NCBI GenBank assembly: GCA_964355795.1
Contig: CAYHEQ010000001.1
Location: forward strand, 9,849-73,848
DNA length: 64,000 nt
Direction: 5' to 3'
Source: an uncultured Candidatus Saccharibacteria bacterium
GTDB lineage: Bacteria; Patescibacteriota; JACPGU01
The notes under the pieces were generated by a model, which saw only the letters and a list, made by a program, of their open reading frames with translations, did no database searches and was not told the origin of the DNA. The position numbers and the translations under genes are program-made. Positions 3,980-52,068 of the stretch are shown here, piece after piece; within the stretch, counting starts at the first letter, position 1; each line of letters starts with the position of its first letter.

Positions 3980-4115
3980 AATTTTTCTCCATTTTCAAAT
4001 CGCTTGTTTTTTTGCTTTTTTGCGCCTATCGACCAGGATTTCTCCCAGTAAGACGTTTTGGCTTATGGCCAGAAAAGCGAAGCGATTAATGATTAATAAT
4101 TAATTTTTAATTTCT

Positions 4116-4196
4116 TATTTTTCCCGACGCGTTATATTTTTTAATATAATGAAGTCGGGATCCCGATTTCGCGATAGCGAACATCGGGACTTATTT
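4116..4196. repeat. About 82-bp conserved intergenic element, copy 1 of 2 (copy 2 at 30785..30866), containing palindrome TCGGGATCCCGA
   Basis: tatttttcccgacgcRYtatattttttaatataatgaagtcgggatcccgatttcgcgatagcgaacatcgggacttatttt is shared between the two loci. Both copies sit upstream of minus-strand surface-protein genes. Confidence 0.8.
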
Positions 4197-4245
4197 TTTT
4201 AATTTAATGCTCAATATCCAGTTGAGGAAAACAAAAAGAGAGAAT

Positions 4246-7523: not shown

Positions 7524-7818
7524 AGAGGGTGTTGCTTTTTCATCGCTATCTTCATTAATCTCTTGCTGAGAAAAGAATCAAGCTCTATTACTAAAACAAC
7601 TTCTCCAATGACCCAAGAAATGAGATTTCTCCCAACAAAGGCGGTGGGTTGCGTAAAGCAACACTGCCTAGCCTCTTCAAGAGTAGGCTCTGGGACACGC
7701 ACGGTAAGCTGTGCCTTCTCAACATCATTATTAACAATTTGATATTAAAAGCAATACCACTTTACTACCAGAACAAGATAGGTATAGGTATGGACGCCAC
7801 CATAGCCATTGGTGTTGT

Positions 7819-8361
7819 CTATTGATTTATCTCTGGATGTTCTTCTAAATATCTATCTCTAATGTATACTCCCAACGTTGGTGCTGTATTCTCCATATTG
7901 CGATCGGGATTATTGTAGAAAAATACTTTCAAAAAATCCATGGATTGAGTATCCGATAAAGTATACACCGATCTTATAGATAAAATCTCTACATCATGTT
8001 TCAACCTTGGCTTCTCATTATCTATAATACTGAAAAAGTTAGTCTTATTATCGGCAAATACCTTAGGAAAACTTAAATCTTCTAGTAATTTATTACCTGC
8101 CTCTGTAAGCCTTAGAGGGCTATAACTTTCCAGTTCTCGGTGATCAAACATAATGCTGGTATTGCCTATCAGGGCATCCGCCACTACCTTTATATTGACT
8201 TTTACCTTTTCCATAGTTTTTTCAAGAGAAGACAGTATTTGGAGTTTCCTTCCAATATAGATACACCCACCAATGATAGCTGGTATACCTATAATGATTA
8301 TTGCCTTGTTCGTAAGGTTTAGCCAATCCATATATTTTTTTACCGATATCAGCCTAAACAT
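7819..8361 (-). CDS. Hypothetical membrane protein
   Basis: ORF with one TM segment (IIIIGIPAIIGGCIYI). No recognizable domain. Confidence 0.45.
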   Translation of the reverse strand: MFRLISVKKYMDWLNLTNKAIIIIGIPAIIGGCIYIGRKLQILSSLEKTMEKVKVNIKVVADALIGNTSIMFDHRELESYSPLRLTEAGNKLLEDLSFPKVFADNKTNFFSIIDNEKPRLKHDVEILSIRSVYTLSDTQSMDFLKVFFYNNPDRNMENTAPTLGVYIRDRYLEEHPEINQ

Positions 8362-13219: not shown

Positions 13220-13233
13220 TAGGGGTCTGTTAT

Positions 13234-13279
13234 CCGAGGTTCGACCTTAGCTTCTGAACTTCCCCAAGGTCGAACCTCG
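13234..13279. repeat. Hairpin repeat family copy
   Basis: ccgaggttcgaccttagcttctgaacttccccaaggtcgaacctcgg. Confidence 0.8.
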
Positions 13280-13325
13280 GATTTAGGACATGTTCCGTTG
13301 TTCAATAGTAAATTACTTTTTCTAA

Positions 13326-14380: not shown

Positions 14381-14389
14381 AATATGTAA

Positions 14390-14590
14390 GCGATGCGAAT
14401 GATGCGAATTATCATGCCTGCCCGCAATGCTCTCGCCCGAAGCTTTTCATATCTGTTTATAATTATCGTACGTAATATTTAGGGAGCAAACAATATGGGT
14501 GGGGCGCATAGCGAGGCGGGCGGGCGAATCTACGAATCTTGTGCGAATTTATTCGCGATAATTCGCGTTAATTAGAGAAAATTAGCGACT
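14390..14590. repeat. GCGAAT-rich intergenic repeat locus containing a 117-bp MITE-like element (14413..14529)
   Basis: gatgcgaatgatgcgaatt ... ctacgaatcttgtgcgaatttattcgcg flanks a 117-bp segment. That segment is about 97% identical to 36201..36315. Confidence 0.8.
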
Positions 14591-15675: not shown

Positions 15676-15800
15676 GCTTATTTTTTAGCGATGCTAATCT
15701 ACGAATAATATGCGCCTATAGCGAATGTCTATGCAAATAGATTCGCATTCCATTCGTAGATTCGCGCGCATTCGCATTTCATTAGCATCGCGCTATCATT
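15676..15800. repeat. GCGAAT-rich intergenic repeat locus with inverted termini AGCGATGCTAAT / ATTAGCATCGCGCT
   Basis: Multiple ATTCGCAT / TCGTAGATTCGC motifs. The termini are reverse complements of each other. Confidence 0.75.
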
Positions 15801-16737: not shown

Positions 16738-16776
16738 TGAGGTTCGACCTCTGGGCATCCTTTGAGGTCGAACCTC
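16738..16776. repeat. Hairpin repeat family copy (loop variant B) located immediately downstream of the major pilin gene
   Basis: gaggttcgacctctgggcatcctttgaggtcgaacctc. The loop is the reverse complement of the loop in the copy at 29004..29043. Confidence 0.8.
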
Positions 16777-17325: not shown

Positions 17326-17341
17326 AATTTCTCCTTTACTA

Positions 17342-17393
17342 TTAATTTCTTAATTTCTTAATTTCTTAATTTCTTAATTTCTTAATTTCTTAA
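17342..17393. repeat. (TTAATTTC)x6.5 octanucleotide tandem repeat in the 5' leader/promoter of the major pilin gene
   Basis: Six perfect 8-bp units plus a partial unit. They end 16 bp upstream of the pilin start codon, just upstream of the RBS. Confidence 0.9.
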
Positions 17394-17446
17394 CCCTATC
17401 GTAATACAATAACCTCTCTATGTTAAGGGCCACTTTTCAACAGGCT

Positions 17447-24414: not shown

Positions 24415-24487
24415 TTTGCAACTATGTAATTGCTTAAGCGATGCGAATCTACAAATAACATGCGAATATAGCGAATGTCTATGCGAA
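24415..24487. repeat. GCGAAT-rich repeat, left flank of the GxxExxY gene
   Basis: taagcgatgcgaatctacaaataacatgcgaatatagcgaatgtctatgcgaatc. Confidence 0.7.
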
Positions 24488-24844
24488 TCAAATTTTTGTA
24501 TTTAATATCCTATTGGGCTTAAGATGGCTATTTCTAAAATTAACTATCATCCCCAACTTCAAATTATTAATTTCTAGGTATCTTTTTACTTGAAAATAAT
24601 CTTCTTTGTCCGCAAAATTTTTTGCTTTGCATTCTACTACTATTTTATCTTCTATGAGAAAATCCATTCTATTCCCACTGCCATCATTTAATTCTCTTTT
24701 ATAAGCAACACCTTTATTCTGCAGTTCCTTCTCTATTTCATCACAATATTGTTTTTCTTTACAGAATCGCCCTAGTCTATTTTGAACTGCAAAAAATATC
24801 CCATTTATTTTGTAAGACAATTCCGGATAAATTACATCCTTCAT
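24488..24844 (-). CDS. GxxExxY-family protein (PD-(D/E)XK superfamily)
   Basis: INGIFFAVQNRLGRFCKEKQYCDEIEKEL ... IVVECKAKNF ... LKLGMIVNF fits the GxxExxY family profile. Confidence 0.65.
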   Translation of the reverse strand: MKDVIYPELSYKINGIFFAVQNRLGRFCKEKQYCDEIEKELQNKGVAYKRELNDGSGNRMDFLIEDKIVVECKAKNFADKEDYFQVKRYLEINNLKLGMIVNFRNSHLKPNRILNTKI

Positions 24845-24849
24845 TTATT

Positions 24850-24910
24850 ACTTATTATTCGCATTATATTCGTAGATTCGCATGAGAATTCGCATTATTC
24901 GCATCGCTTA
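24850..24910. repeat. GCGAAT-rich repeat, right flank of the GxxExxY gene
   Basis: ttattcgcattatattcgtagattcgcatgagaattcgcattattcgcatcgcttattac. Confidence 0.7.
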
Positions 24911-27076
24911 TTACTGCCTGGCTTTGAATACTTCTTTGGCAAATCCCGGTGGCGGGGACAAGACTACTCGCGGATCGTATTGGAAATCTTCGGCTGGTTG
25001 CCAATCCAGATATTTAGGATCGTTAGGCTTTATTGAACCCTTGCAAATTGGTGGCAAGGCGTTATCGCAAGACCAGAGTAGCTCTTTCGGACCAATGTAA
25101 TTGCGATAAAGTTGGAAAGCTTCTGATCGCGAAGAAACATTCCACCACCCGCTAGCGATGACCACTCCATGAATGACTAATTGTTTGTCATAAGTCTCTC
25201 CGCCACAAGCAGCGGGGGTAATAGCGCAAGAACCGCTAATAAAGCTCCCCTTTTGACCGGTATTGGCTTTGTCAGAATAGATGAAGAATACGCCCTCCAG
25301 CCTTCCTACCCTCGGACTGACATTGACATTGCCATTTTTGACAATGAAGCCCACCATATCTTTGTTTTTGTTCTCGTATTGCAGACTGTCGTTAATAGAA
25401 AGATCGCCATCAACAACAACCGTTCCTCTGCCACGCAGGGTCATCGGCGAACCGCTATTGTTACCTATCGTCAAACCGTCACTATAATAAAGAGCGCCTC
25501 CTTCAGGGATATTGGTGGGATTGAGGTCTATTGTCGCGCTAGTGAGACTACCTTTGCCATAACTAGTTTTGGCTATTTTGGCGCCATTAATTAGTTTCGT
25601 CCGACTTTTTTCTATAATTCCGCAAGCCGAATTTTCTTGACAGACTTTGTCTTCATCTAGACCAAAACTGGAAGGACTATTAGAGCTGATGCCGTATGCG
25701 CCCACCGTCCAATCGCTCGCTGATTTTGATTGAGACGCTATATTGCCACCAGAACCGATGATGTAGAGAACGCTAGAAGGATTTCTCAAGTTCACTCCCT
25801 TGCGACCAAAAACGCTACCCCCGGTGGATTCTTTGAGGAAAGAATAAGTAACGATGTCTATGTCTGTTTTGGTAGTTTGCTCTGTCCCCGTCGTAAAGGT
25901 CGCGGTATTGGTAATTACTGAATTGGCTGTCACCTCTTTGGCAATAGTTACTTCTACTTCAAAATGATAATTGGTGGCGTGGACCAAAGAATTGATCGTT
26001 ATGGACAAAGAATTAGTCCCCGCAGTAGCGACGCTATAACTAGCGGAAATGATGTTAGCGCTTTTTACCCTGATACCCTTGATGGCAGACGCTGGCGTAA
26101 CCGTATCGTTGATGGTCAAAGTTCCTCCATCGGTAATATTATCCACCGCTACATCAAGATCGTAAGTGGTGGTGAAATCAATGCCCGGATTAATGAGGAG
26201 AGAAGTATCGTCGCTTTTACTCGCTGTTATCAGAGCCGACATCGGACTGATGAGCAAGACTTCCGCCGCCGAGTATTGCCAATGAATCTTGTCTTCAGAA
26301 ATAGCGGCTACTCCTTTGACTAAATACATGGCGGGATCAACCAAGGAGTTGCCCTTGTTGTCAAAAACTAGCGCTTCCGCCGTAGAACGATCAATATTTT
26401 TGAGATCGGACATTTTGTAAAAAGTGAGCGCGAGATTAGTCGTAGAATTGGCAAAAACAGTAAATCTCCTTCCCTCTTTCGGTTGCGGAACATAATATTG
26501 AACGCCTCCGATGGTTATCGTATCAGATCCGCCACTATCCACGGAGATGAAGTGTGTGCCGACTTTCAGATTAGAAATATTAAAATTCCCACTAGTAGGC
26601 GTGGCCGTTACCCCATCTATCAAAAGAGGGGCGATGATCGGACCGCTGTCGCTATTTTTCATCTCAATGCTGGCCGATCCCAAACCGATTGCTTCCGTAG
26701 CTGTCAACATTACTGTCTTGGAAATTTCCGCGCTAGCACCATTGATGCAAAGTAATTTGTAGATGGCCGAACCTTGCGGAACAAAAGTTTTCACTACTCC
26801 AAGAGGAGCGCCCCAACTACTGACGATAGTGGCGCCTAAGTCATCTATAATCCTGCATGAAGTAGCGCTGGAAACAGTGTAATAGAGAGTTATTGGGTCC
26901 ATCGGGTTTTTGATAGTGACATTTTTGAATGGCAGACCGCTAATACCATCAAAAACAAATTTCGTGATCGTCGGCTCGCCGACCGCCCGCGCGGAAGTGG
27001 CGCCAAAAATAATCCCCGCTACCAACGCTGGGAGAAAAACTAGCCCGAAAATAATGGATGAATATCTTTTGTTCAT
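24911..27076 (-). CDS. Large secreted protein (721 aa), possible adhesin
   Basis: N-terminal signal peptide (IIFGLVFLPALVAGIIFGATSARA). Ser/Thr/Gly/Asn-rich beta-type composition. No catalytic motifs. Confidence 0.65.
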   Translation of the reverse strand: MNKRYSSIIFGLVFLPALVAGIIFGATSARAVGEPTITKFVFDGISGLPFKNVTIKNPMDPITLYYTVSSATSCRIIDDLGATIVSSWGAPLGVVKTFVPQGSAIYKLLCINGASAEISKTVMLTATEAIGLGSASIEMKNSDSGPIIAPLLIDGVTATPTSGNFNISNLKVGTHFISVDSGGSDTITIGGVQYYVPQPKEGRRFTVFANSTTNLALTFYKMSDLKNIDRSTAEALVFDNKGNSLVDPAMYLVKGVAAISEDKIHWQYSAAEVLLISPMSALITASKSDDTSLLINPGIDFTTTYDLDVAVDNITDGGTLTINDTVTPASAIKGIRVKSANIISASYSVATAGTNSLSITINSLVHATNYHFEVEVTIAKEVTANSVITNTATFTTGTEQTTKTDIDIVTYSFLKESTGGSVFGRKGVNLRNPSSVLYIIGSGGNIASQSKSASDWTVGAYGISSNSPSSFGLDEDKVCQENSACGIIEKSRTKLINGAKIAKTSYGKGSLTSATIDLNPTNIPEGGALYYSDGLTIGNNSGSPMTLRGRGTVVVDGDLSINDSLQYENKNKDMVGFIVKNGNVNVSPRVGRLEGVFFIYSDKANTGQKGSFISGSCAITPAACGGETYDKQLVIHGVVIASGWWNVSSRSEAFQLYRNYIGPKELLWSCDNALPPICKGSIKPNDPKYLDWQPAEDFQYDPRVVLSPPPGFAKEVFKARQ

Positions 27077-27103
27077 TTGAATTTTGACTTTATGGTTCCT
27101 CGT

Positions 27104-27140
27104 CCGAGGTTCGACCTTAGCTTCTAAATTTCTCCGAAGT
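27104..27140. repeat. Hairpin repeat family, half copy
   Basis: ccgaggttcgaccttagcttctaaatttctccgaagtctc; the right arm is absent. Confidence 0.6.
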
Positions 27141-27146
27141 CTCCGT

Positions 27147-27191
27147 CCGAGGTTCGACCTTAACTTCTAAACTTCTCCAAGGTCGAACCTC
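27147..27191. repeat. Hairpin repeat family copy
   Basis: ccgaggttcgaccttaacttctaaacttctccaaggtcgaacctc. Confidence 0.8.
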
Positions 27192-27261
27192 TTTACCCCT
27201 GTTTTTCTGTTTTTTTTAATTTTATTCAATCTGCAATCTGAAATCTAGAATCTGCAATTCT

Positions 27262-28017: not shown

Positions 28018-28037
28018 TTTAATTGTTAGTTTCGCGT

Positions 28038-28101
28038 CCGAGGTTCAACCTTAGCTCCTAAACTTCTCCACTTGTCCGCCTCTGGAGGAAGGTTGAACCT
28101 C
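28038..28101. repeat. Hairpin repeat family copy (T-to-A variant, long loop)
   Basis: ccgaggttcaaccttagctcctaaacttctccacttgtccgcctctggaggaaggttgaacctc. Confidence 0.7.
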
Positions 28102-28741: not shown

Positions 28742-29020
28742 TTACTTTTTTAGCCCTTCCCCCGCTATAGGTCCCGGCATTTGACTCGTTTCAAAGCCAT
28801 AAGTCGTTTCCCCCTTCTTCTTCGCCTCCTCTATCGCCAGATTTCTTTTAATCATATCCGGCGTGCCGGCTATCGGTGACTTACTTCGTAACCGTATCTC
28901 GTTATACGCCACCACTCCCAGCAAAACGACTCCGACCGCAAGAGTGATGATAGCAATATGGCGAAAAGTTATTTCTTTCATACTAAATTTTAATTTCTCC
29001 AATCCGAGGCTCAACCTCAA
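28742..29020 (-). CDS. Small membrane protein
   Basis: The N-terminal 13 codons lie inside a hairpin repeat. The likely real start is MKEITFRHIAIITLAVGVVLLGVVA at about 28981. Confidence 0.4.
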   Translation of the reverse strand: MRLSLGLEKLKFSMKEITFRHIAIITLAVGVVLLGVVAYNEIRLRSKSPIAGTPDMIKRNLAIEEAKKKGETTYGFETSQMPGPIAGEGLKK

Positions 29021-29043
29021 AGGATGCCCAGAGGTTGAACCTC
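29004..29043. repeat. Hairpin repeat family copy (loop variant B, opposite orientation)
   Basis: ccgaggctcaacctcaaaggatgcccagaggttgaacctc. Confidence 0.75.
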
Positions 29044-29065
29044 TTTACCCTAGATGGTTTCCTGT

Positions 29066-29110
29066 CCGAGGTTCAACCTTAGCTTCCAAACTTCCCCAAG
29101 GTTGAACCTC
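29066..29110. repeat. Hairpin repeat family copy
   Basis: ccgaggttcaaccttagcttccaaacttccccaaggttgaacctc. Confidence 0.8.
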
Positions 29111-29173
29111 TGACCAATAATTTTTGTCTTCCGCGTAAGTCTGCGTTAAGTCTGCGTCCGTCCGCGGTCGGCG

Positions 29174-29868: not shown

Positions 29869-30768
29869 TTATTTTACTGGCACCAATTTTATCGGATTAT
29901 TATACTGATCCAACAAACTTTGCAAAAATGGATCTTGAGGATTTTGCGCCAAACCATCTTTTAAGACCAGCTTCGCTCCCGCAATATCTTTCTGACTATG
30001 CAACATAGTGGCCAAACCATAATAAGCGGCCACTAATTTCGCGTCCAGCCTGATAGCTTCTCGATATTGTTTCTCGGCCGCCTCGTATTTTTCCTGACTA
30101 CTCAAGACATTAGCAAAATTGTTGTGGTAAATAGCGACAGAAGGCTCTTTGGCCACTACTTGCCCCCAAGTTTCTACAGCCTTGGTGAGATTACCAACAT
30201 TTTGGTAAAGTGAAGCTAATGTCGCCAAATCCTCCGCGCTGACAGCTGATTTTTCCAAAATCGTCGTCGCCTCCACATACCTCTTCAGTCTTTCTTCTGG
30301 TGTCAGGGTTCGGCCACTATCTGCGTCCACACCCATCCCCGCTTCTTGGATAGTCTGTTGAAGAGTTTTTTGCGTATCAGAACCAATGATATTTTCCCTG
30401 ATAGTCGTGAGGTAGAAAGAGCCCGCAATGCCAGCTATGATGATAACCAGTAAAGTTGCCCCCAAGAAAATCCCTATTCTCCTGCGGTATCGCGGTATCT
30501 GCAAACGCGAGATATCCACCACCCGCACCGTCCCGGGCTCGGCAAAATTATGCACCAAAATCTCCCCTTGCCGAAGCTTACCAACAACCACTTTTTTGTT
30601 TTTTCGCGCACCTTGATTTTTTCTAATAATCTTGCGCGACCCTCCGAAACTTGCTACTCGCGAGACAGGAATAGTAGTTCCGTGAGCGAGTAAGCGTGAA
30701 GGACGGGTTGGTTTTACTACCTTTTTTGGCTTCAGTTTCTCTTTTTGTTTGCGTTTTTTGATTGACAT
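29869..30768 (-). CDS. TPR-repeat membrane protein
   Basis: Basic N-terminus, one TM segment (IGIFLGATLLVIIIAGIAGSF), then TPR-like repeats (AIYHNNFANVLSSQEKYEAAEKQYREAIRLD). It is paralogous to 34002..34730 and 38073..38759. Confidence 0.7.
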   Translation of the reverse strand: MSIKKRKQKEKLKPKKVVKPTRPSRLLAHGTTIPVSRVASFGGSRKIIRKNQGARKNKKVVVGKLRQGEILVHNFAEPGTVRVVDISRLQIPRYRRRIGIFLGATLLVIIIAGIAGSFYLTTIRENIIGSDTQKTLQQTIQEAGMGVDADSGRTLTPEERLKRYVEATTILEKSAVSAEDLATLASLYQNVGNLTKAVETWGQVVAKEPSVAIYHNNFANVLSSQEKYEAAEKQYREAIRLDAKLVAAYYGLATMLHSQKDIAGAKLVLKDGLAQNPQDPFLQSLLDQYNNPIKLVPVK

Positions 30769-30784
30769 ATATTTCTTTATTTTT

Positions 30785-30866
30785 TATTTTTCCCGACGCA
30801 CTATATTTTTTAATATAATGAAGTCGGGATCCCGATTTCGCGATAGCGAACATCGGGACTTATTTT
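30785..30866. repeat. About 82-bp conserved intergenic element, copy 2 of 2, abutting the TPR gene start
   Basis: About 95% identical to 4116..4196. Contains the TCGGGATCCCGA palindrome and the AT-rich TATATTAAAAAATATA box. It ends about 20 bp before the ATG at 30768. Confidence 0.8.
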
Positions 30867-30872
30867 CTTGAC

Positions 30873-31265
30873 TTATCGTAAAACTGGAGAAGCTTCCATC
30901 GATTTTATTTCTTTAATGTCTTTAGAATTAAAAATTTTCTTCTCTCCAAGCTTATCCACTACTTTTTCTAATTTTTCGTCCCTTTTCCTCATCATAACAA
31001 TCAAATCGCTCTTCAAATTAATCATTTTGTCTGTCATGAAACTCTTGGTGACCATTTGATTCCTTACGCTATCTATATCGGCTTGCAGATCAGTTTTGAC
31101 GGCTTGCAGATCAGTTTTGACACTCTGCAGGTCAGTTTTTACACCCTGAAGATCGGTTTTTATTTCCTTAATATCCCCATGAATACCGCCAAATTGATCA
31201 GTAAGGAAATCCATGAATTTCTCATCATTCATGATGCTAGATTGTTTGGTATTTTCTCCTGTCAT
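30873..31265 (-). CDS. Small coiled-coil protein with 7-aa tandem repeats (KTDLQxV x4)
   Basis: IKTDLQGVKTDLQSVKTDLQAVKTDLQA is encoded by a 4 x 21-bp tandem repeat. Confidence 0.5.
   Translation of the reverse strand: MTGENTKQSSIMNDEKFMDFLTDQFGGIHGDIKEIKTDLQGVKTDLQSVKTDLQAVKTDLQADIDSVRNQMVTKSFMTDKMINLKSDLIVMMRKRDEKLEKVVDKLGEKKIFNSKDIKEIKSMEASPVLR
31080..31163. repeat. 4 x 21-bp tandem repeat (coding)
   Basis: ggcttgcagatcagttttgac x2, followed by two diverged units. Confidence 0.85.
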
Positions 31266-34001: not shown

Positions 34002-34730
34002 TTATCCTCTTCTGTATGTCATCAATATCTGCTTCAACATCTCATCTTTTGGAATTTGAGCTGTTCCCTCTTCTAAAACTTTTATCGCTTCTGCTCTATT
34101 ATTTTCGAAATCTCTCAAAAGTACCGCTAGATTAACATAGGTGGCAGAAAAATGTGGGTCAATGGTGATGGCTTCGCGATAATGCTTTTTTGCTTCTTCG
34201 TATTTTTTTTCACTACGCAAAACATTGCCCAGATTATTATGCAAAATAGCGTCTTGAGGAGTTACTTTTACGGCTTGTGAGAAAAACTCCTCGGCTTTAC
34301 CCAAATCTCCAAGATTATAATAAGAAACGGCAAGTTTCTGTAAAACATCCTTGTTGTTAGGCTGTGTATTGATAACTTTTTCTAATTCTTCCACGGTTTC
34401 TTTGTATTTTTTTGTTTGCATTTCTGCGCTTATTGCCTGATCGCCACTTTTACCCATCGTTGCCTCCCTGTACGCATCCAGCCCATTCGCTAACCATTCC
34501 TGCGCTTTCACATCGCGCCAAATACGATATTTATTCAACAGAACATTCGCCAACAAAGATCCCCCATAAACCACAACTATAAGAATAATTATACTAATTA
34601 TAATTTTTGCTTTTTTATTAAAAATCTTCCTCTTTCTCTCCTCCCAATTTTTGTTTTTCTTTTTCATAAGTGAAATTTCTGTATCTGTAGTATATATTTC
34701 CTCATTTAGAGGTTCGACCTTAGTTTCCAA
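34002..34730 (-). CDS. TPR-repeat membrane protein (paralog)
   Basis: The first about 11 codons of the ORF are a hairpin repeat, so the start is likely MKKKNKNW at about 34667. One TM segment then TPR repeats (ILHNNLGNVLRSEKKYEEAKKHYREAITID). Confidence 0.65.
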   Translation of the reverse strand: METKVEPLNEEIYTTDTEISLMKKKNKNWEERKRKIFNKKAKIIISIIILIVVVYGGSLLANVLLNKYRIWRDVKAQEWLANGLDAYREATMGKSGDQAISAEMQTKKYKETVEELEKVINTQPNNKDVLQKLAVSYYNLGDLGKAEEFFSQAVKVTPQDAILHNNLGNVLRSEKKYEEAKKHYREAITIDPHFSATYVNLAVLLRDFENNRAEAIKVLEEGTAQIPKDEMLKQILMTYRRG

Positions 34731-34752
34731 ACTTCTCCGAGGCCAAATCTCT
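34708..34752. repeat. Hairpin repeat family copy (degenerate right arm)
   Basis: agaggttcgaccttagtttccaaacttctccgaggccaaatctc. Confidence 0.65.
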
Positions 34753-34781
34753 TATCCCTAATAATTTTTCTCAATCTCCGA

Positions 34782-35383: not shown

Positions 35384-35543
35384 ATGTCTTCTCTAAAATC
35401 TTTTTTCTAATATCCATTTTTTTACAAATTACGGTAATATCTTTTGCCATAGACTTTCCTCTACTTTTCCTTTTTGTTTTTTTTGATTCACTATATTGTG
35501 TACTTTGATCCCTTATTTTCTTAATTTCTTATTTTCTTAGCCC

Positions 35544-36095
35544 CTACGGCGCCAAAGTGTCCAAGACGATGAACGAATCGCCAGATTTGGCGGAATAGTT
35601 GCACCAGATCATATCCCCGGAATAGCCCGTTACTATGGCAGTGGCGCAACCCCCCGTTGTTGGCGCAGAAGCGGTAGTGCCATCAGAGCCAGCCTTCATA
35701 CCGCTATATTTGAATCCTGTCGGTGTGGAGAATTTGACATCTGTGGACTTGGCTAAACTTTCAGGATTGTTGACGGTTAAAGTGAATTTGACTGTATCGC
35801 CCGCTTTCGCCGTCGCCGTGTTGTTTCGCGCAGATACTGGCGCGATGTTTTCTGCCTTCGTATGCACCGAAACACCTTGATAATTGAAATTGTAGCCGAC
35901 ATCAATAGGTTGTCTATCGGCCGCGAATGTTCCCAGTTTGAATCCTCCCAAGGCCACGCCAGCCAAAAGCAAAAGGCCTACTACATATATAGTAGCCTTT
36001 CTGTTGGAAAGTTTTTTGGAAAAACCCTTGAGAGTGGAGGCTCTTTTGATGCGATTGCTCCTGCGCACGATTTTTTCAAAATTGAAAGATAACAT
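35544..36095 (-). CDS. Secreted/membrane-anchored protein with Thr/Ala-rich beta domain
   Basis: Signal anchor IYVVGLLLLAGVALGGF. DUF11-like composition. Confidence 0.5.
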   Translation of the reverse strand: MLSFNFEKIVRRSNRIKRASTLKGFSKKLSNRKATIYVVGLLLLAGVALGGFKLGTFAADRQPIDVGYNFNYQGVSVHTKAENIAPVSARNNTATAKAGDTVKFTLTVNNPESLAKSTDVKFSTPTGFKYSGMKAGSDGTTASAPTTGGCATAIVTGYSGDMIWCNYSAKSGDSFIVLDTLAP

Positions 36096-36180: not shown

Positions 36181-36430
36181 CGATGCTAATCTGCGAATGG
36201 ATGCCTGCCCGCAATGCTCTCGCCCGAAGCTTTCATATCTGTTTACAATTATCGTACGCAATATTTAGGGAGCAAACAATATGGGTGGGGCGCATAGCGA
36301 GGCGGGCGGGCGAATATGGCGAATATTTATGCGAATTAATTCGCATGGGATTCGTAAATTCGCATCGCGTTCGTAGATTCGCATGGCATTTCAAATTCGC
36401 ATCGCATTATTCGTGTCGCTTAACTCAAAA
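36181..36430. repeat. GCGAAT-rich repeat locus containing the second 115-bp MITE-like element copy (36201..36315)
   Basis: atgcctgcccgcaatgctctcgcccgaagctttcatatctgtttacaattatcgtacgcaatatttagggagcaaacaatatgggtggggcgcatagcgaggcgggcgggcgaat, followed by four ATTCGCAT octamers. Confidence 0.8.
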
Positions 36431-37136: not shown

Positions 37137-37184
37137 TGACGGGAGTAGGATTTGCACCTACGAAGGCCGAAGCCAGCAGATTTA
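37137..37184 (-). other. Exact 44-nt duplicate of the 3' part of tRNA-Tyr (3' part of anticodon loop through acceptor 3' strand) with no 5' half
   Basis: gggagtaggatttgcacctacgaaggccgaagccagcagattta is identical to 37248..37291 of the intact tRNA-Tyr. It is joined directly to a double-hairpin element. Confidence 0.75.
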
Positions 37185-37214
37185 TCACCCTGCGGGTGAC
37201 CACCCGTAGGGTGG
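37185..37214. repeat. 30-nt double-hairpin element, copy 1 (TCACCC-tgc-GGGTGA / CCACCC-gta-GGGTGG)
   Basis: tcaccctgcgggtgaccacccgtagggtgg. It sits exactly at an anticodon-loop position (GACU | element | UAAAUCU). Confidence 0.75.
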
Positions 37215-37243
37215 CAGTCTTCTTTAACCAATGATTTTCAAAA

Positions 37244-37606: not shown

Positions 37607-37618
37607 ATAAGAGATTTA

Positions 37619-37648
37619 TCACCCTGCGGGTGACCACCCGTAGGGTGG
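37619..37648. repeat. 30-nt double-hairpin element, copy 2 (identical to copy 1)
   Basis: tcaccctgcgggtgaccacccgtagggtgg, directly 3' of a tRNA-Tyr-like 5' half. Confidence 0.75.
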
Positions 37649-37683
37649 CAGTCTGCCCCGTTTGACCGCTTCGGTACCCCACC
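37649..37683 (-). other. Orphan tRNA-Tyr-like 5' half (acceptor through anticodon nt 33), truncated by the double-hairpin element
   Basis: GGUGGGGUACCGAAGCGGUCAAACGGGGCAGACU closely resembles the canonical bacterial tRNA-Tyr 5' half. No partner 3' half with a CCCCACC acceptor strand is present. Confidence 0.65.
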
Positions 37684-37728
37684 ATTTTGGTAATTATCAA
37701 ATTCCTAATCCTTGCCTAAAGCCCACGA

Positions 37729-37768
37729 GCAGGGTTGAACTGCTGACCTTTTCCTTACCATGCTTGCC
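37729..37768 (-). other. Degenerate partial copy of tRNA-Thr(GGT) (T-arm to anticodon loop)
   Basis: agggttgaactgctgaccttttccttaccatg compared with agggttgaactcgagaccttcaccttaccatg in the intact gene. Confidence 0.6.
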
Positions 37769-38759: not shown

Positions 38760-38884
38760 ATACTTTTAGTTAATAGCGATGCGAATGATACGAATTTTTC
38801 ATGCGAATATGGCGAATCCCTATGCGAATCCAATTTGCATGAATATTCGTAGATTCGCATGTCATTCGTAGATTAGCATCGCGT
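38760..38884. repeat. GCGAAT-rich repeat locus with inverted termini
   Basis: agcgatgcgaatgatacgaat ... ttcgtagattcgcatgtcattcgtagattagcatcgcg. Confidence 0.75.
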
Positions 38885-39727
38885 TTATGAAATGAACAGA
38901 TTCTCAAAAAAAATCCTCTTGGAGGCATTACTCTCCAAGGCGCTTTCCACTTTCAACAGCTTTTCCAAAACCTTGGCTATTCTACCATAAGGCAATGATT
39001 TTTCCAAGTCTCCCCAAGAATCTTTTTCAAAATCCCCCAATTCCCCTATCCCTTGCGTATTCAAAGCCAAATTTCTCAAAACCCAAATCATCATATCAAT
39101 GTCTTTTTGCGGTTCTTCTTTCTCCGCCAGCTCCTTGGCTCTGATTAATTTCAAGAAATCTTTTTCGGATAACAAATCACGGCAAATAGCGATGGCGTTT
39201 CCCCCTTCTTCTCCGTCTGTTGCGGAAAAATCTTCGTAAAAATAGACTGATTGCGCTCGAGACAAAATAGTCTTGGGCATACCGCTCTTATCCCCAGCGG
39301 TTAAGATGATGATAGACTTCGCCGGTGGTTCCTCCAGGGTTTTGAGGAGCGCCTCACAAGCTTCATTGGTCAGCTTCTCCGCATTGTTTATTATCAGAAA
39401 TTTCCACTCGCCCTTGGAGCGAGAAAGATTGATGCCCCTTTGCGCCTCCCGAATATCGTCTATCAAAATATGCTCGTCGCCTTTGTCTATCATATGAGTA
39501 TCAACAAAGGTGCCCGACGAAGCTAGGCGACAATGATGACATTTTCCACAAGGGCTATCCCCCTTCCTTTCTTGACATTGAAAATATTGGGAAAGATATT
39601 TGGCAAAATCTTTCTTCTTTTCGCCCTTTGGACCGTAAAAAATATAGGCGTGAGAAAGCCTCTCTGACTCCAAAGCTTTTTGAAAAAATCCCAATTGTCT
39701 CGGGTATTCTTCTTTAATATCCACCAT
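38885..39727 (-). CDS. holB: DNA polymerase III delta-prime subunit
   Basis: HAYIFYGPKG Walker A-like, zinc module C..C..C..C, EACEALLKTLEEPP box. Confidence 0.8.
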   Translation of the reverse strand: MVDIKEEYPRQLGFFQKALESERLSHAYIFYGPKGEKKKDFAKYLSQYFQCQERKGDSPCGKCHHCRLASSGTFVDTHMIDKGDEHILIDDIREAQRGINLSRSKGEWKFLIINNAEKLTNEACEALLKTLEEPPAKSIIILTAGDKSGMPKTILSRAQSVYFYEDFSATDGEEGGNAIAICRDLLSEKDFLKLIRAKELAEKEEPQKDIDMMIWVLRNLALNTQGIGELGDFEKDSWGDLEKSLPYGRIAKVLEKLLKVESALESNASKRIFFENLFIS

Positions 39728-41246: not shown

Positions 41247-41360
41247 TCGCGATGCGAATAGCGCAAATTTGAAATGCCGTGCGAATATAACGAATTTTTA
41301 TACTAATAATCTCGTTCGCATAAGATTCGTAGATTCGCATACCATTCGTAGATTAGCATC
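41240..41360. repeat. GCGAAT-rich repeat locus with inverted termini
   Basis: cgcgatgcgaatagcgcaaat ... ttcgtagattcgcataccattcgtagattagcatcgc. Confidence 0.75.
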
Positions 41361-41394
41361 GCTTGTGTTGTTAAGTCGTTGCACGCGCAAAAAA

Positions 41395-42380: not shown

Positions 42381-42914
42381 CTATTTGGCATTCATTCTCT
42401 CCGCCAAATAGAATATGGCTATCCCAAAGGCCACTGAAACATTGAGAGATTTGCGCGCCCCTAGCATCGGAATTTCAATAACGACATCGGCCAACCGTTG
42501 CAAGGATTTAGACACTCCCCTAACTTCATTGCCGATGATCAAAGCGATCTTGCCACTCGGTTTGTATTTTTTGTAACCAATCGCATCTTTTGCCTGTTCT
42601 AGGCAAACTATTTGATAACCCTCCCCCTTCAAGCATTTAATGAGCTCCCCTATCGTCTTCACTGGATGAATGTTCTCTTGTGATATTTTTTCTGCGTACT
42701 TCCGCGTAAATTTCCGCGTAGATCCGCGCAAAGTAACCCACGGAACCATATTTTCGGAGCCCAAAGCCACCTTGGCTATCTCTTTCTTCGGCGGACAGCC
42801 TGTATAGCCAGTCAAAAAAATCTTGTCCACCCCCGCCCCCTCCGCGGTACGAAAAATAGACCCCACATTGTGGAGCGAACGAATATTGTGAGCGATAATA
42901 ACGATATTTTTCAT
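42381..42914 (-). CDS. SpoU-family RNA 2'-O-methyltransferase (TrmH/TrmL-like)
   Basis: HNVGSIFRTAEGAGV motif I, IIGNEVRGVS motif II, IPMLGARKSLNVSVAFGI motif III. Confidence 0.8.
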   Translation of the reverse strand: MKNIVIIAHNIRSLHNVGSIFRTAEGAGVDKIFLTGYTGCPPKKEIAKVALGSENMVPWVTLRGSTRKFTRKYAEKISQENIHPVKTIGELIKCLKGEGYQIVCLEQAKDAIGYKKYKPSGKIALIIGNEVRGVSKSLQRLADVVIEIPMLGARKSLNVSVAFGIAIFYLAERMNAK

Positions 42915-42964
42915 ATAACTTCACATAGCATACTCAATAAAACATCCCACCACAACACCACGAC

Positions 42965-42992
42965 ATTCTCACATTCGCAAGAATGTGAGAAT
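42965..42992. promoter_or_regulatory. Palindromic operator ATTCTCACATTC-gcaa-GAATGTGAGAAT (copy 1), upstream of the SpoU methyltransferase gene
   Basis: Perfect 12-bp inverted arms. Identical arms recur at 43280 and 45305. Confidence 0.7.
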
Positions 42993-42993
42993 G

Positions 42994-43266
42994 TTAAAAT
43001 TGCTTAGTGAAGTTGATAACTTTCTTCCCATAGGGTGAGAGAGAATGAGCCACTGCTCTACCCTGATACTTTTTGTTCAAAAGACCAGCCTGAACTAATC
43101 GCCTTGTGTGTTCGGAGATTGTTTTCATATTACAATTGAGAGCCTCTGCAATCTCATCTAGCGTCATGCCACTTTTCTTATCTATCAGAAAAAGAATGTC
43201 CAGACGCCGATGGTTAGCCGCCCCTTTAAAATATCTCTCTAACTGTTTGGCTGTTTTCATATTCAA
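42994..43266 (-). CDS. ArsR/SmtB-family transcriptional regulator
   Basis: ANHRRLDILFLI...MTLDEIAEALNCNMKTISEHTRRLVQAGLL is the ArsR wHTH signature, in 90 aa. Confidence 0.8.
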   Translation of the reverse strand: MNMKTAKQLERYFKGAANHRRLDILFLIDKKSGMTLDEIAEALNCNMKTISEHTRRLVQAGLLNKKYQGRAVAHSLSPYGKKVINFTKQF

Positions 43267-43279
43267 ATGATATCACAAT

Positions 43280-43307
43280 ATTCTCACATTCTCAAGAATG
43301 TGAGAAT
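43280..43307. promoter_or_regulatory. Palindromic operator (copy 2), immediately upstream of the ArsR gene
   Basis: attctcacattctcaagaatgtgagaat. Confidence 0.7.
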
Positions 43308-43309
43308 AT

Positions 43310-45253
43310 CTAATTTCTGTATATTTTATCTACTAGCCCCAATTTAACAAGACGCGACCTGATAGATCCTTTTGTTCTTTCAAACATGGTTGCAAGATTG
43401 ACGGTAGATTTACCTTCTCTAAAAAGCTTTGTTAATTTTTCATCCTGCGCTTCATCCCATGGCAAGTAAGCGCTTGGATGCTTTTCTCGCATTTCATCAA
43501 GATCAACTTTCTTGTCAGTAATTGCTTTTCGTTCTTCTCCTATCAACATTCTCGCAATTCGTAATTCTTCATATGAATATTTCCCATTAAATTTTTCAAA
43601 AACCGGCGAGAGCCTCATCGTATCAAGCTCTCTAAATGTTGCTTGTATTTGCGAAATATTTTTGGCTAGAGAATCCGAAACCAAACGAGCAAAGACATCA
43701 GCAAGGAGTATTTTCTCCCCTTCTACTAAATGTTCTATGTGATCTAATATCGTTCGCTCGTGGAGAGAACGCACTTTGGCTATTTCAATAATATTTTTGC
43801 CCTCCAACCATAGTTTCAGGGTTTCTTGGTATGTATCTGTTTTCTTTTTCTTGACCTTCAGAGAGTGCTGGTTGTTTTCTGCCAATGGCGTAATATGTCC
43901 GCCACAAGCAATGATAAAGTTTTCATGCGTTTTAACCAATTCTGTCTGATTGACCAAAGAATATCTCCTTTCTACTTCAAAAGATGCCTGGCGAAATGAA
44001 TTATCTTGAGTCAAAACATCCGGACTCACTCGAAAAGCCATTTCATTCCAGCCGAGAAGATGGACACCAGAAAGTCGTCGCACGCGAGAAAGCGCCACAT
44101 ACCCCTGTCCAAATTCAAAAACACCCGAGAGATCCATCACCGCTTCGTCCAAACTCATGCCCTGACTTTTGTGCACAGTAATGGCCCATGCGAGACGCAA
44201 TGGCAGTTGAGTGAGACGCGCGCGCGCTTCACCGCCTACCTCTATCGTCCAATCCATCGGCTTAACGAGAATATGCCTGCCATTTTTTGTTTTAACTACC
44301 GGATGCCCGTTCTCCTCATTAAATGATGCAACTACTCCCAGAGTACCATTGGCAAATCCTTCGCGAGGATTATTTTTTGTGAACATCACCACCGCGCCTT
44401 TTTTCAAATGTAATATCTCCGGCGAAAGACAACCCTTTTTCATTGATGCGACCAATGATTTATGCCCCCTTGAACCCATCGTAAAGGTATGATTGTTGTC
44501 AGTAAGATTCCCCAACATCATATCGTTAATTCGATCCACATCGGCATTATGTGAAAAAAGTTTCGTCATACCATCCGACAACATATCGCGCGTCACTTTT
44601 CTTTCTTTAATATGCTTGAAATGATTTTCGTCAAAATTATTTCGCCTGATAGCCGATAGTAAAGAAAGAAATACAGGATCATCCTGACGATACTGCTCGT
44701 CCAAATAACAAGTAGTTAGCTCCGCTTTTTCCCAAGCAGGCGAAGCGTAAGCAAAAGGACTTTCCTCCTCATCGCCCAAAAATGTCGTTTGCCTATTCAT
44801 ACTTTCATCTTTTCTAACAATAGGCGGGAGCTGAAAAAAATCACCTACCAAAACTATCTGCATACCACCAAATGGTTTTTCTTTGTTTTTGATAGCTCGG
44901 CATACCATATCCACCATAGTAAGCGTTGTCGCCGACAACATAGATACTTCGTCAATGACGAGAACTCGCGCATCCTCAATACGATCGGTAATATATTTGC
45001 TTGAGACAATATCGTTAATATCGCTTTTGCTTAGTTTATCTTTGATGCCAATCCCCGACCACGAATGGATGGTCATCCCGCCAAGATGCGTCGCTGCGAT
45101 ACCTGTTGAAGCTGTAATTGCTGGCTCTATTTTATAAGAACGCAAATACCGCACATATTCATTAACAGTATGTGTCTTGCCACTCCCAGGTTCTCCAGTC
45201 AAAAAAACATTGGCCCCAGATTTCAATATATTCAGAGCTTGATCTTGTGTCAT
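43310..45253 (-). CDS. Pif1/RecD-like superfamily 1 helicase with C-terminal HTH region
   Basis: GEPGSGKTH Walker A, VLVIDEVSM Walker B, FFQLPPI Pif1 motif, GDFFQL. 647 aa. Confidence 0.75.
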   Translation of the reverse strand: MTQDQALNILKSGANVFLTGEPGSGKTHTVNEYVRYLRSYKIEPAITASTGIAATHLGGMTIHSWSGIGIKDKLSKSDINDIVSSKYITDRIEDARVLVIDEVSMLSATTLTMVDMVCRAIKNKEKPFGGMQIVLVGDFFQLPPIVRKDESMNRQTTFLGDEEESPFAYASPAWEKAELTTCYLDEQYRQDDPVFLSLLSAIRRNNFDENHFKHIKERKVTRDMLSDGMTKLFSHNADVDRINDMMLGNLTDNNHTFTMGSRGHKSLVASMKKGCLSPEILHLKKGAVVMFTKNNPREGFANGTLGVVASFNEENGHPVVKTKNGRHILVKPMDWTIEVGGEARARLTQLPLRLAWAITVHKSQGMSLDEAVMDLSGVFEFGQGYVALSRVRRLSGVHLLGWNEMAFRVSPDVLTQDNSFRQASFEVERRYSLVNQTELVKTHENFIIACGGHITPLAENNQHSLKVKKKKTDTYQETLKLWLEGKNIIEIAKVRSLHERTILDHIEHLVEGEKILLADVFARLVSDSLAKNISQIQATFRELDTMRLSPVFEKFNGKYSYEELRIARMLIGEERKAITDKKVDLDEMREKHPSAYLPWDEAQDEKLTKLFREGKSTVNLATMFERTKGSIRSRLVKLGLVDKIYRN

Positions 45254-45304
45254 ACGCCACCATTATACACACAACCCCCTCGCAGATAAAGATAAGCAAC
45301 TATC

Positions 45305-45332
45305 ATTCTCACATTCTTGAGAATGTGAGAAT
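45305..45332. promoter_or_regulatory. Palindromic operator (copy 3), about 50 bp upstream of the Pif1-like helicase gene
   Basis: attctcacattcttgagaatgtgagaat. Confidence 0.7.
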
Positions 45333-45418
45333 GAGTTGTAAAATAACAAAAACGAAAAGATACGCGTGGGCGAGTGAGCAATGTGATATAATTATTACAA
45401 CTAAAACTAAGAGGCTCT

Positions 45419-45883
45419 ATGAACAAAAAAACATTTTGGATTTTGGTTTTTTTCATCCTCCTCTCCCTCATCGGATTGGCAGACTCTATTTACTTAACTT
45501 ACGAACATTATACGGGAGCGCCTCTGGTTTGTATTATAACCCAAGGTTGCGATACCGTCACCACCTCCCCCCAAGCCTATATTTTTGGCGTCTATATCGC
45601 CATTTATGGCGTTATCTATTATTCTCTGATTTTCTTTTTGAGCTTGATGGCAATTACCACCAATTACGCGCGAAGCGCAAATTTCTATAAATTTCTTATC
45701 TTTCTAACCCCCCTCGGTTTCCTCGCCTCTCTCTATTTCCTCTACCTCCAAGCCTTCGTTATTGGCACTTTCTGTACCTGGTGCCTCATCTCGGCTATTG
45801 ATTCAACCCTGCTCTTCATATTGGGACTATATTTAGCAAACGATAACCACCGTAGCCATATTTTCGTGGAAGATAAGCTCTAA
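45419..45883 (+). CDS. Vitamin K epoxide reductase (VKOR) family membrane protein
   Basis: Loop Cys pair (CIITQGCD) and active-site CTWC in a TM helix. Four or five TM segments. Confidence 0.7.
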   Translation: MNKKTFWILVFFILLSLIGLADSIYLTYEHYTGAPLVCIITQGCDTVTTSPQAYIFGVYIAIYGVIYYSLIFFLSLMAITTNYARSANFYKFLIFLTPLGFLASLYFLYLQAFVIGTFCTWCLISAIDSTLLFILGLYLANDNHRSHIFVEDKL

Positions 45884-46074
45884 TTTCTTATTTTCTTAAT
45901 TTTTTATTTTCTTAGCCCTACCGTTTTCCACAAGAAAACTCCCCTTGCGTAAAATCCTTATCGGGTTAAAATGAGAGAGAACACCAGCAATTTGGTAATT
46001 TGTTGTAATTGAGTAACTGATTGCAATTAATTACTATAAATTAGCATCAGTTACCACCAATTACCCGAATCCCC

Positions 46075-51910: not shown

Positions 51911-52068
51911 AAAAAATAACTTATTTTTAGTTTCTTATTTTCTCAATTTCTTATTTTCTTATTTTACCATTTTGCTGTATAATAATAAAGAGGCGTAAAT
52001 TGCCTGTTTCGTTTTGATTTTTTATTTTCTTATTTTTTTTAATTTCTTAATTTTTTAGCCCCAAACCC

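Follow-up and report, generated by a model that had tools for sequence, protein, structure and literature searches.

Does the small winged helix-turn-helix (wHTH) protein encoded on the minus strand at 42994-43260 bind the long palindrome that occurs three times around its gene and, if so, which promoters does it control? The question is raised by a stretch of 64,000 nucleotides (64 kb; the window in what follows), analysed as a whole, that belongs to a groundwater metagenome contig of an uncultured Candidatus Saccharibacteria bacterium. Bacteria of the Candidate Phyla Radiation (CPR; Patescibacteria) are mostly uncultivated, and gene regulation in them is almost unknown. Comparison across genomes suggests that protein and palindrome constitute a very widespread and nearly invariant variant of an ArsR-type repressor/operator pair, of which the window holds one locus.

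The 12-nt arms ATTCTCACATTC and GAATGTGAGAAT pair as inverted repeats without a mismatch at 42965-42992, 43280-43307 and 45305-45332, positions that agree with an earlier note on this DNA, and 100 dinucleotide shuffles gave an expectation of 0.00 for these three matches. The centre of two or three bases given in that note does not occur literally, as four bases separate the 12-mers (GCAA, TCAA and TTGA in the three copies). Copies 2 and 3 have a 13-2-13 layout, and the core of copy 3 is the exact reverse complement of the core of copy 2. Extended outward to the cross-genome consensus, each copy measures 32 bp and is unstranded: copy 1, ACATTCTCACATTCGCAAGAATGTGAGAATGT, at 42963-42994, copy 2, ATATTCTCACATTCTCAAGAATGTGAGAATAT, at 43278-43309 and copy 3, TCATTCTCACATTCTTGAGAATGTGAGAATGA, at 45303-45334. 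The statement that only the centre differs holds for the 12-mers, which are perfect in all three copies, but not for the 32-bp sites, whose outer dinucleotides also vary from copy to copy (AC..GT, AT..AT and TC..GA) while remaining symmetric inside each. No fourth copy came up when the window was scanned for the 32-mer consensus at a tolerance of as many as 10 mismatches.

As the earlier note had observed, every copy lies upstream of a minus-strand start codon, with gaps of 50 nt to the start of a SpoU-family gene (42914), 19 nt to that of the regulator and 51 nt to that of a helicase gene (45253). However, the regulator start is ATG 43260 rather than the proposed TTG 43266; the ATG yields an 88-residue protein that matches all orthologues and the public gene call, and the TTG is used by none of them. 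A point absent from the earlier note is that copy 1 begins within 0-2 nt after the stop codon of the regulator gene, and that copy 2 stands in the same relation to the helicase gene. Copy 1 shares one base, the last, with the regulator TAA, and copy 2 directly follows the helicase stop codon at 43310-43312. Copy 3 occupies the intergenic region between the divergent genes of the helicase and of a VKOR-family protein.

The protein and the site recur together far beyond this contig; hundreds of ultra-small CPR genomes share the pair with little change. More than 1680 homologues of the 88-aa protein were found, the best 120 of which are 73-100% identical to it and nearly all 88 aa long; these 120 are spread over many lineages of the CPR (Uhr-, Kaiser-, Brenner-, Doudna- and Azambacteria and the Parcubacteria group), with identities of 75-85% between CPR classes. 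Retrieval with the protein alone provided 80 loci, 74 of them distinct, and sites were counted in those with enough flanking sequence. A palindrome lies just upstream of the regulator gene in 69 of 70 loci and a second one at its 3′ end, overlapping the stop codon, in 68 of 70; both are present in 63 of 66. Conversely, the DNA core TCTCACATTC-N2-6-GAATGTGAGA is found in at least 119 genome stretches of 8 kb each, and about 18 of the 119 listed stretches, retrieved by the DNA pattern alone, contain the regulator gene, far above the chance expectation, which for a genome of about 1 Mb is less than 1% per stretch. Up to seven sites occur within 12 kb around the regulator gene.

The hosts of the listed stretches are nearly all CPR bacteria (Parcubacteria, Saccharibacteria), together with some Planctomycetota, Verrucomicrobiota and Chthoniobacterales. 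Perfect or near-perfect copies of the A+T-rich 32-mer stand in the 69% GC planctomycetotal contig JBGLNR010000001.1 (loci L023, L024, L039 and L058), and in Verrucomicrobiota/Chthoniobacterales contigs of 52-53% GC (L002, L026, L030 and L077). The order of the L002 module, site-wHTH-site-RhuM/Fic-site, is that of the CPR loci. Neither IMG/VR viral contigs, searched with the palindrome pattern, nor phages, searched with the protein, gave a match, and on plasmids the protein matched nothing but ArsR genes of about 30% identity.

The consensus, ACATTC-yn-ACATTCT-NN-AGAATGT-nr-GAATGT, contains the hexamer GAATRT four times, each arm having two copies with a spacing of 8 bp, and the hexamer bases are invariant in the 70-82 sites compared. 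The central dinucleotide is confined to TG/CA (66), TA (26), GC (21) and CG (14) in 128 sites, a restriction more in keeping with two-fold recognition of a DNA duplex than with a free hairpin loop. On this comparative evidence the palindrome is almost certainly the binding site of the 88-aa protein and its own operator. The literature searched contains no description of the motif or the regulator; the study of the Patescibacteria LexA regulon (Sanchez-Osuna et al. 2017) lay outside its coverage.

What kind of protein, then, would recognize this site? The 88-aa sequence scores above the Pfam cutoffs for both HTH_5 (ArsR; 33.2 bits, cutoff 22) and MarR (33.8 bits), and it scores 46 bits with the NCBIfam ArsR metalloregulator model NF033788, below the cutoff of 55. 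Among solved structures the sequence comes nearest to HlyU (best, E = 3.6e-4), ArsR and SmtB (E-values between 1e-4 and 1e-2). An AlphaFold (AF2) model built from 31 orthologues (mean predicted local distance difference test score, pLDDT, 85.8) exhibits the order a1-a2-a3-aR-b1-b2 (wing)-a5, with helices at residues 4-14, 17-29, 34-41, 45-57 and 76-86 and strands at 61-66 and 69-74. Foldseek places CadC, AntR, HlyU and ArsR at the top of its matches to this model, followed by PagR, NolR, SqrR, MarR proteins and AspA. Across the 31 diverse orthologues hardly any variation is seen in the recognition helix and wing, KTISEHTRRLVQAGLLNKKYQGR.V.HSLSPYG. Taken together, Pfam, the solved relatives, the AF2 model and Foldseek bear out the earlier assignment to the ArsR/SmtB fold. 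Membership of the MarR family was rejected: at 88 aa the protein falls well short of the roughly 140-150 aa of MarR proteins, whose N- and C-terminal helices build the dimer interface around the wHTH, the MarR Pfam match is limited to the wHTH core (residues 16-63), and MarR structures align in Foldseek over only about 73-86 of their 137-153 residues.

Metal sensing, also proposed in the earlier note, found no support when the alignment and the AF2 model were inspected for metal ligands: helix α3 (TLDEIAEAL) lacks a CXC motif, and α5 (PYGKKVINFTKQF), only 11 residues long, carries no Asp/His/Glu site. Since the metal-site criterion fails and the curated sequence thresholds are borderline, the protein is filed as a divergent, non-metal member of the ArsR/SmtB type rather than as a metalloregulator. 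It shares the a1-a2-a3-aR-b1-b2-a5 fold, the small size and the presumed homodimeric state with HlyU, NolR, PagR, BigR/SqrR and RexT, ArsR/SmtB proteins without a canonical metal site, but with 88 aa and its short α5 it ranks among the shortest. A single cysteine, Cys43, precedes the recognition helix aR; it is present in 113 of the best 120 homologues, and 102 of the 120 have exactly one Cys. Redox sensing through this nearly invariant residue is possible. In contrast to the redox members BigR/SqrR and RexT, which have a Cys pair, there is one Cys here, and the speculation that the protein is a 1-Cys oxidation switch starts from Cys43 being the only conserved candidate sensor.

The upstream copy is built into the predicted promoter of the regulator gene (43267-43295, minus strand). 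The −35 box TTGAGA (43295-43290) falls in the centre of copy 2 and is followed by a 17-bp spacer and a TG-extended −10 box, TATCAT (43272-43267), with the ATG 6 nt further on (6-15 nt in orthologues). A position matrix of 70 orthologue promoters repeats this layout, with TTGAGA in the centre of the site and T-R-T-R-G-T-A-n-n-A-T, a TG-extended −10, exactly 17 nt on. Where the centre of the upstream copy is asymmetric, TTGA is oriented toward the regulator gene in 47 cases versus 17. As a separate observation, the −10 boxes of both the helicase and the regulator genes lie 6-8 nt before the ATG (intervals 45254-45261 and 43261-43266), with no Shine-Dalgarno sequence, which suggests leaderless or nearly leaderless mRNAs.

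In the mechanism proposed here the 88-aa protein would repress transcription as a minimal winged helix of the ArsR fold, with the 32-bp palindrome as its binding site. At its own gene the centre of the palindrome would supply the −35 box and the right arm would fill the 17-bp spacer, the TG-extended −10 standing directly after it. Because the palindrome is built into the promoter, bound protein would cover the −35 box and spacer and exclude RNA polymerase, an arrangement classical for repressors that would result in negative autoregulation. As each site has four hexamers, two per arm and 8 bp apart, two dimers probably bind one 32-bp site. With a site in the promoter of 69 of 70 orthologues and a fixed −35/−10 geometry, autoregulation by promoter occlusion appears well supported by the comparison; the earlier note had also proposed autoregulation. 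We consider the core of this proposal, the pairing of protein and site together with autoregulation, to be probable, and the repressor/operator explanation as a whole is the favoured one and likely to be correct.

A palindromic operator over the regulator's own promoter, implying autoregulation, is the usual arrangement of ArsR/SmtB repressors. The operators of SmtB and CzrA are imperfect 12-2-12 inverted repeats over the promoter and are reported to take two dimers. The present site resembles them in its long inverted repeat, which has a centre of 2 bp and overlaps the −35/−10 region, and its internal repeats are compatible with two dimers. It differs in its 15-2-15 layout with two direct GAATRT boxes per arm and in its sequence, which is unrelated to the TGAA..TTCA core. 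Other features unlike those of known ArsR/SmtB systems are the conservation, almost base for base, of a four-hexamer operator of 32 bp across a superphylum and beyond, a second copy fused to the stop codon of the gene itself, and the many copies that are not promoter-associated.

Autoregulation is also expected of a system that organizes the chromosome and merely controls its own synthesis, either a centromere-like pair of the AspA/ParB type or a fork barrier of the RTP/Ter type. RTP of B. subtilis, a winged-helix dimer whose gene lies beside Ter sites and which autoregulates through Ter, provides a precedent. AspA of the Sulfolobus plasmid pNOB8 binds a palindrome beside its own gene. AspA is a small ArsR-like centromere-binding protein of similar size and a structural match to the 88-aa protein (Foldseek E about 7e-4, template-modelling score 0.72), and the present sites cluster around the protein gene regardless of gene orientation. 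However, GC skew keeps a flat, negative course throughout the window and does not switch near 43-45 kb, for which reason a replication origin or terminus was rejected as well, and the sites are symmetric, unlike the known fork barriers, which have a polarity. No parA/parB-like partner was found nearby among the Pfam matches of the window or in four annotated loci, and the locus has no plasmid context of the kind in which AspA acts with ParA/ParB. A chromosome-organizing role is considered highly improbable.

Returning to the repressor/operator reading, the copy at the 3′ end of the regulator gene raises the question of what a second site would do. Most orthologues have their last codons and stop within the palindrome, in one of two forms. 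In the first, K-T-F-stop is written AAA ACA TTC TAA; in the second, seen in L155, L158, L185, L191, L192 and L195, the frame runs through the left arm (..TFSHS or ..TFQHS) as far as a TGA or TAA that the palindrome centre supplies, and the operator centre doubles as stop codon. The 3′ copy is 307-390 bp from the upstream copy, and its centre tends to present TTGA to the next gene (41 versus 19). No fixed −10 box follows it across the orthologue loci. The 3′ copy would act as a second operator, a roadblock or a hairpin that decides read-through into the next gene, which is SpoU in the window; as a second operator it would possibly loop with the first.

Several observations weigh against extending the operator interpretation to every copy, and they concern the window as well as other genomes. 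Support for the pairing comes from comparative genomics throughout. Window copy 1 has only a poor −10 box after it. Copy 3 does not cover the helicase promoter but precedes it, at about −49 to −80. Copies that are not adjacent to a regulator gene are distributed over co-directional, convergent and divergent gaps as 48:13:7, indistinguishable from the background gaps (73:13:14%), and these dispersed copies exhibit neither a TTGA orientation bias (14 versus 21) nor a fixed −10 box, so that many of them cannot be classical operators. Furthermore, the arms co-vary: over positions 8-12 pairing within a copy is 0.73-0.96, compared with 0.04-0.17 between an arm and that of another copy in the same locus, and such co-variation is not required by independent half-site recognition. 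The earlier note had named copies away from promoters as evidence against its reading; they do exist in other genomes, and perfect copies stand between convergent genes at the background rate, separating real convergent pairs in, for example, L014, L029, L046 and L112.

Co-variation of the arms reaches about 18 nt from the centre. Flank positions beyond the fixed core still pair above shuffles (0.59 versus 0.30 at distance 6), and the window copies show the same behaviour in their outer dinucleotides. The three copies of L203 (9500-9531, 9932-9963 and 10259-10290) have the linkers CCAA/TTGG, CTCA/TGAG and CTAA/TTAG, each symmetric within its own copy. Arm mismatches reveal no preference for G.U over A.C in upstream sites (49 versus 54) and an unconvincing one in downstream sites (45:28), and since a G.U excess is lacking, DNA and not RNA seems to be the level at which the symmetry acts. 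Template-switch 'perfection' of quasi-palindromes is a process that generates symmetry; this process and the extrusion of cruciform or hairpin DNA are candidate causes of the arm symmetry.

These observations bear on a reading in which the palindromes work primarily at the level of the transcript or of structure, as bidirectional terminators, RNA-stabilizing stem-loops or protein-assisted roadblock insulators between genes, with the wHTH protein controlling read-through rather than initiation. The window palindromes can fold into stable hairpins (−21 to −24.5 kcal/mol, z-scores −5.4 to −6.8), the median distance from the preceding stop codon to the start of a copy is 17-24 nt, and A/T runs flank them at 4-8 times the background; the splitting of convergent pairs by perfect copies, the arm co-variation and the 3′ copy without a fixed −10 box are likewise in keeping with such a role. 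Yet a T-run on the downstream side of the transcript accompanies only 19% of copies across genomes and none of the three window copies, where the stems are A+U-rich and continue on the minus strand as GUCGUGG, AUUGUGA and GAUAGUU with no U-tract; on these grounds a Rho-independent terminator, with its G+C-rich stem and U-tract, was rejected. The missing G.U excess also speaks against a transcript-level role, and a hairpin needs no near-invariant sequence across phyla. With about 1-7 copies per locus, clustered near one gene, the palindromes cannot be general genome terminators, and the upstream copy, which carries the promoter, is not transcribed as a hairpin from that promoter. Rfam returned only chance-level matches for the palindrome region at E up to 10 (E >= 0.6), and at the gathering score it found only tRNAs in the whole window. 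A primarily transcript-level function is judged unlikely.

The neighbours of the regulator gene are almost never alike, forming 445 clusters among 675 neighbouring open reading frames (ORFs). The flanking gene in L135 and L148 is 96% identical, yet whole site-to-site units differ between them, and about 1.3 kb of site-bounded genes in L193 is absent from the 94%-identical L169; the genes inserted or moved in these two comparisons encode DUF3795, XseA, DNA-alkylation repair, cysteinyl-tRNA synthetase (CysRS) and GNAT proteins. Among the free ends of high-scoring segment pairs of 80-97% identity, 28 of 92 (30%) are within 10 nt of a site edge, compared with 1.7% of positions, a figure that owes part of its size, trivially, to the flanks being less conserved than the module.

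Such data are compatible with a mobile or recombinogenic module, REPtron- or cassette-like, in which 32-40-bp palindromes serve as exchange junctions, also between phyla, and the protein is the DNA-binding factor of the element. In REPtrons, REP (repetitive extragenic palindromic) elements associated with RAYT transposases, short palindromes are dispersed between genes and the cognate gene is flanked by two copies. Here, too, the regulator gene lies between two copies and palindromes are often found at 3′ ends and between convergent genes. Apart from the differing neighbours and the shifted site-bounded units, a mobile module would account for the match of the dispersed copies to the background gap types and for identical sites in Planctomycetota (69% GC) and Verrucomicrobiota (52-53% GC), and the 75-85% protein identity across CPR classes is easier to explain by lateral spread.

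Against mobility, no Pfam match to a transposase or integrase lies within 10 kb on either side in the four annotated loci, no direct-repeat target duplications were seen, and copies are lacking on IMG/VR viral contigs, phages and plasmids. Unlike a RAYT, the 88-aa protein is a DNA binder without a catalytic domain, the copies are few and clustered near the gene, and the upstream one has the appearance of a functional promoter. The REPtron itself was rejected, as the flanked gene encodes a wHTH protein only and neither it nor the 10 kb around it in the four annotated loci provides a Y1 (IS200/IS605-like) transposase. An integron cassette array, which has an intI integrase with attI, was rejected as well: these loci have no integrase nearby, and the sites are conserved in sequence, attC in structure. 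The mobile-module interpretation is quite unlikely.

A combined picture retains the repressor and its operator and adds a role at gene boundaries. The 32-bp palindrome could be a junction element, at once promoter, operator, hairpin and recombination breakpoint, that forms with the 88-aa protein a laterally spreading module delimiting and co-controlling swappable accessory cassettes of one gene each. This picture is doubtful; if true, it would describe a cassette system without a recombinase of its own and with a sequence-conserved boundary, present in CPR, Planctomycetota and Verrucomicrobiota. For the copies beyond the autoregulatory one, operator, roadblock or hairpin, and module junction are the candidate roles.

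Which genes, then, does the repressor control? Further copies in other genomes cluster around the regulator gene, standing before, behind and between very diverse accessory genes, among them nucleases, NUDIX, GNAT, Fic/RhuM, Msr, DoxX and TspO. Genes with a site at most 150 nt upstream represent 168 Pfam families among 150 proteins. The commonest families are GNAT (6), DUF559/MTES_1575 (5), PD-(D/E)XK (4), NUDIX (4), Fic (3) and DUF3795 (3), other frequent ones being TspO, YgjP, DNA_alkylation and HhH-GPD; MsrA/B, DoxX, DNA polymerase I (Pol I) and LigA are also found among genes near sites. Glycosyltransferases, tRNA synthetases and methyltransferases head a control set from the same loci. 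A damage-repair and stress theme among the site-adjacent genes is hinted at, as a lead only, the counts being small.

LexA/SOS boxes of Patescibacteria have reportedly been used to define a regulon by comparative genomics. Several site-adjacent genes likewise belong to DNA repair (PD-(D/E)XK, DUF559, HhH-GPD, DNA_alkylation, NUDIX, Pol I, LigA), but the regulator here is a different protein, and neither recA nor lexA is among the 150 site-adjacent genes. A LexA box was rejected as an identity for the palindrome: an apparent cluster of LexA neighbours consists of DNA methyltransferases, and the one LexA-like gene found (in L179) has no palindrome upstream. That gene is a 554-aa ORF (6587-8251, minus strand) with a LexA-like N-terminus (HTH and S24 peptidase motif) and a DNA methyltransferase-like C-terminus; it could be a real fusion or an artefact of ORF calling. 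The CapS wHTH repressor described in a 2026 paper was considered and set aside as unrelated, being a STAS-wHTH protein with TTAA half-sites. PADLOC, a search for defence systems, gave only generic wHTH and RecD-like similarities.

In the window the regulator is followed by the SpoU/TrmH-family RNA 2′-O-methyltransferase gene (42381-42914, minus strand; 177 aa; Pfam SpoU_methylase 1.5e-30), which stands downstream of the regulator in this genome only. The gene upstream of the regulator (43310-45253, minus strand) encodes a Pif1-like helicase of superfamily 1B with 647 aa and a C-terminal HTH_40 domain (PIF1 6.6e-33, HTH_40 3.4e-19, Pif1_2B), and beyond copy 3 follows the gene of a VKOR-family membrane protein (45419-45883, plus strand; 154 aa; Pfam VKOR 2.7e-25). 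The earlier note had joined the first two with the regulator itself into the regulon of a metal- or redox-sensing ArsR repressor, considered here as a sensor of metals or metalloids. A copy within 51 nt upstream of all three genes and the metal sensors CadC, AntR, ArsR and SmtB among the closest solved relatives are what recommends it. The missing α3 and α5 ligands and the sub-cutoff metalloregulator score speak against the sensor, and the regulon fares no better, as neighbours differ by genome and neither SpoU nor the helicase is a conserved target. SpoU occurs elsewhere as a single fragment in L015, without a site, and is not a recurrent neighbour. Homologues of the helicase are encoded in seven other site-containing loci, none of which has a site within 150 nt upstream of the helicase start.

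The position of copy 3 is also wrong for a helicase operator. An extended −10 box of the helicase gene, TGTGTATAAT, was read from the sequence at 45262-45271 (minus strand), 8 nt before the ATG; the promoter is missing from the promoter scan list because its −35 box is weak (TTTATC). In contrast, the −35 box embedded in copy 3 faces the plus strand and begins a promoter-like TTGAGA-16-TAAAAT (45317-45344) in the centre of the copy, directed toward VKOR. VKOR is thus most plausibly the target that a repressor bound at copy 3 would occlude. A metal-responsive regulon of SpoU, the regulator and the helicase is considered very improbable.

The repressor/operator pair is of interest beyond this locus. 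It is nearly invariant, its 32-bp site is recognizable by eye, and it occurs in Parcubacteria, Saccharibacteria and other lineages. It offers a directly testable transcription factor, since one small protein and one oligonucleotide would suffice, lets part of a regulatory map be read from metagenomes and is a candidate source of a repressible promoter for those few Saccharibacteria that can be manipulated genetically. Three of its features are unusual for an ArsR-type system, namely the operator fused to the regulator stop codon, the co-variation of arms within a site and the site-bounded gene modules, and from these one might learn how a compact genome puts a single element to several uses.

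The window contains other repeats. Arrays of 8-base units (TTTCTTAA / TTTCTTAT) that end in TAGCCC or TAACCC are found between genes at 11407-11450, 17330-17400, 35501-35545, 45876-45920, 51923-51980 and 52012-52062, the one at 45876-45920 directly following the VKOR gene. An intergenic family of ATTCGCAT / ATTCGTAGATTCGC units, about 19 bases apart and in both orientations, occupies 14387-14556, 15687-15780, 24438-24915, 36307-36419, 38768-38892 and 41263-41372; one of its clusters lies between an M50 peptidase gene and the tRNA-Pro/SOD (superoxide dismutase) region, beside the palindrome locus. A second palindromic family, GAGGTTCGACCT...AGGTCGAACCTC with a conserved loop, is present at six or more intergenic places (13224-13281, 16739-16776, 27094-27194, 28028-28085, 29006-29113 and 34697-34754).

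Longer direct repeats join 2551-2850 with 3001-3300 (300 nt, 99% identity, 450 nt apart), 14445-14529 with 36231-36315 (85 nt, 98% identity, 21.8 kb apart) and 4082-4206 with 30751-30875 (125 nt, 87% identity). An exact 43-nt repeat stands beside tRNA-Tyr and again 434 nt away (37178-37220 and 37612-37654). Finally, the 45-nt stretch 37718-37762, in which neither ARAGORN nor Rfam recognizes a tRNA, is similar to the 3′ half of the adjacent tRNA-Thr genes and may be an undetected or degenerate tRNA.

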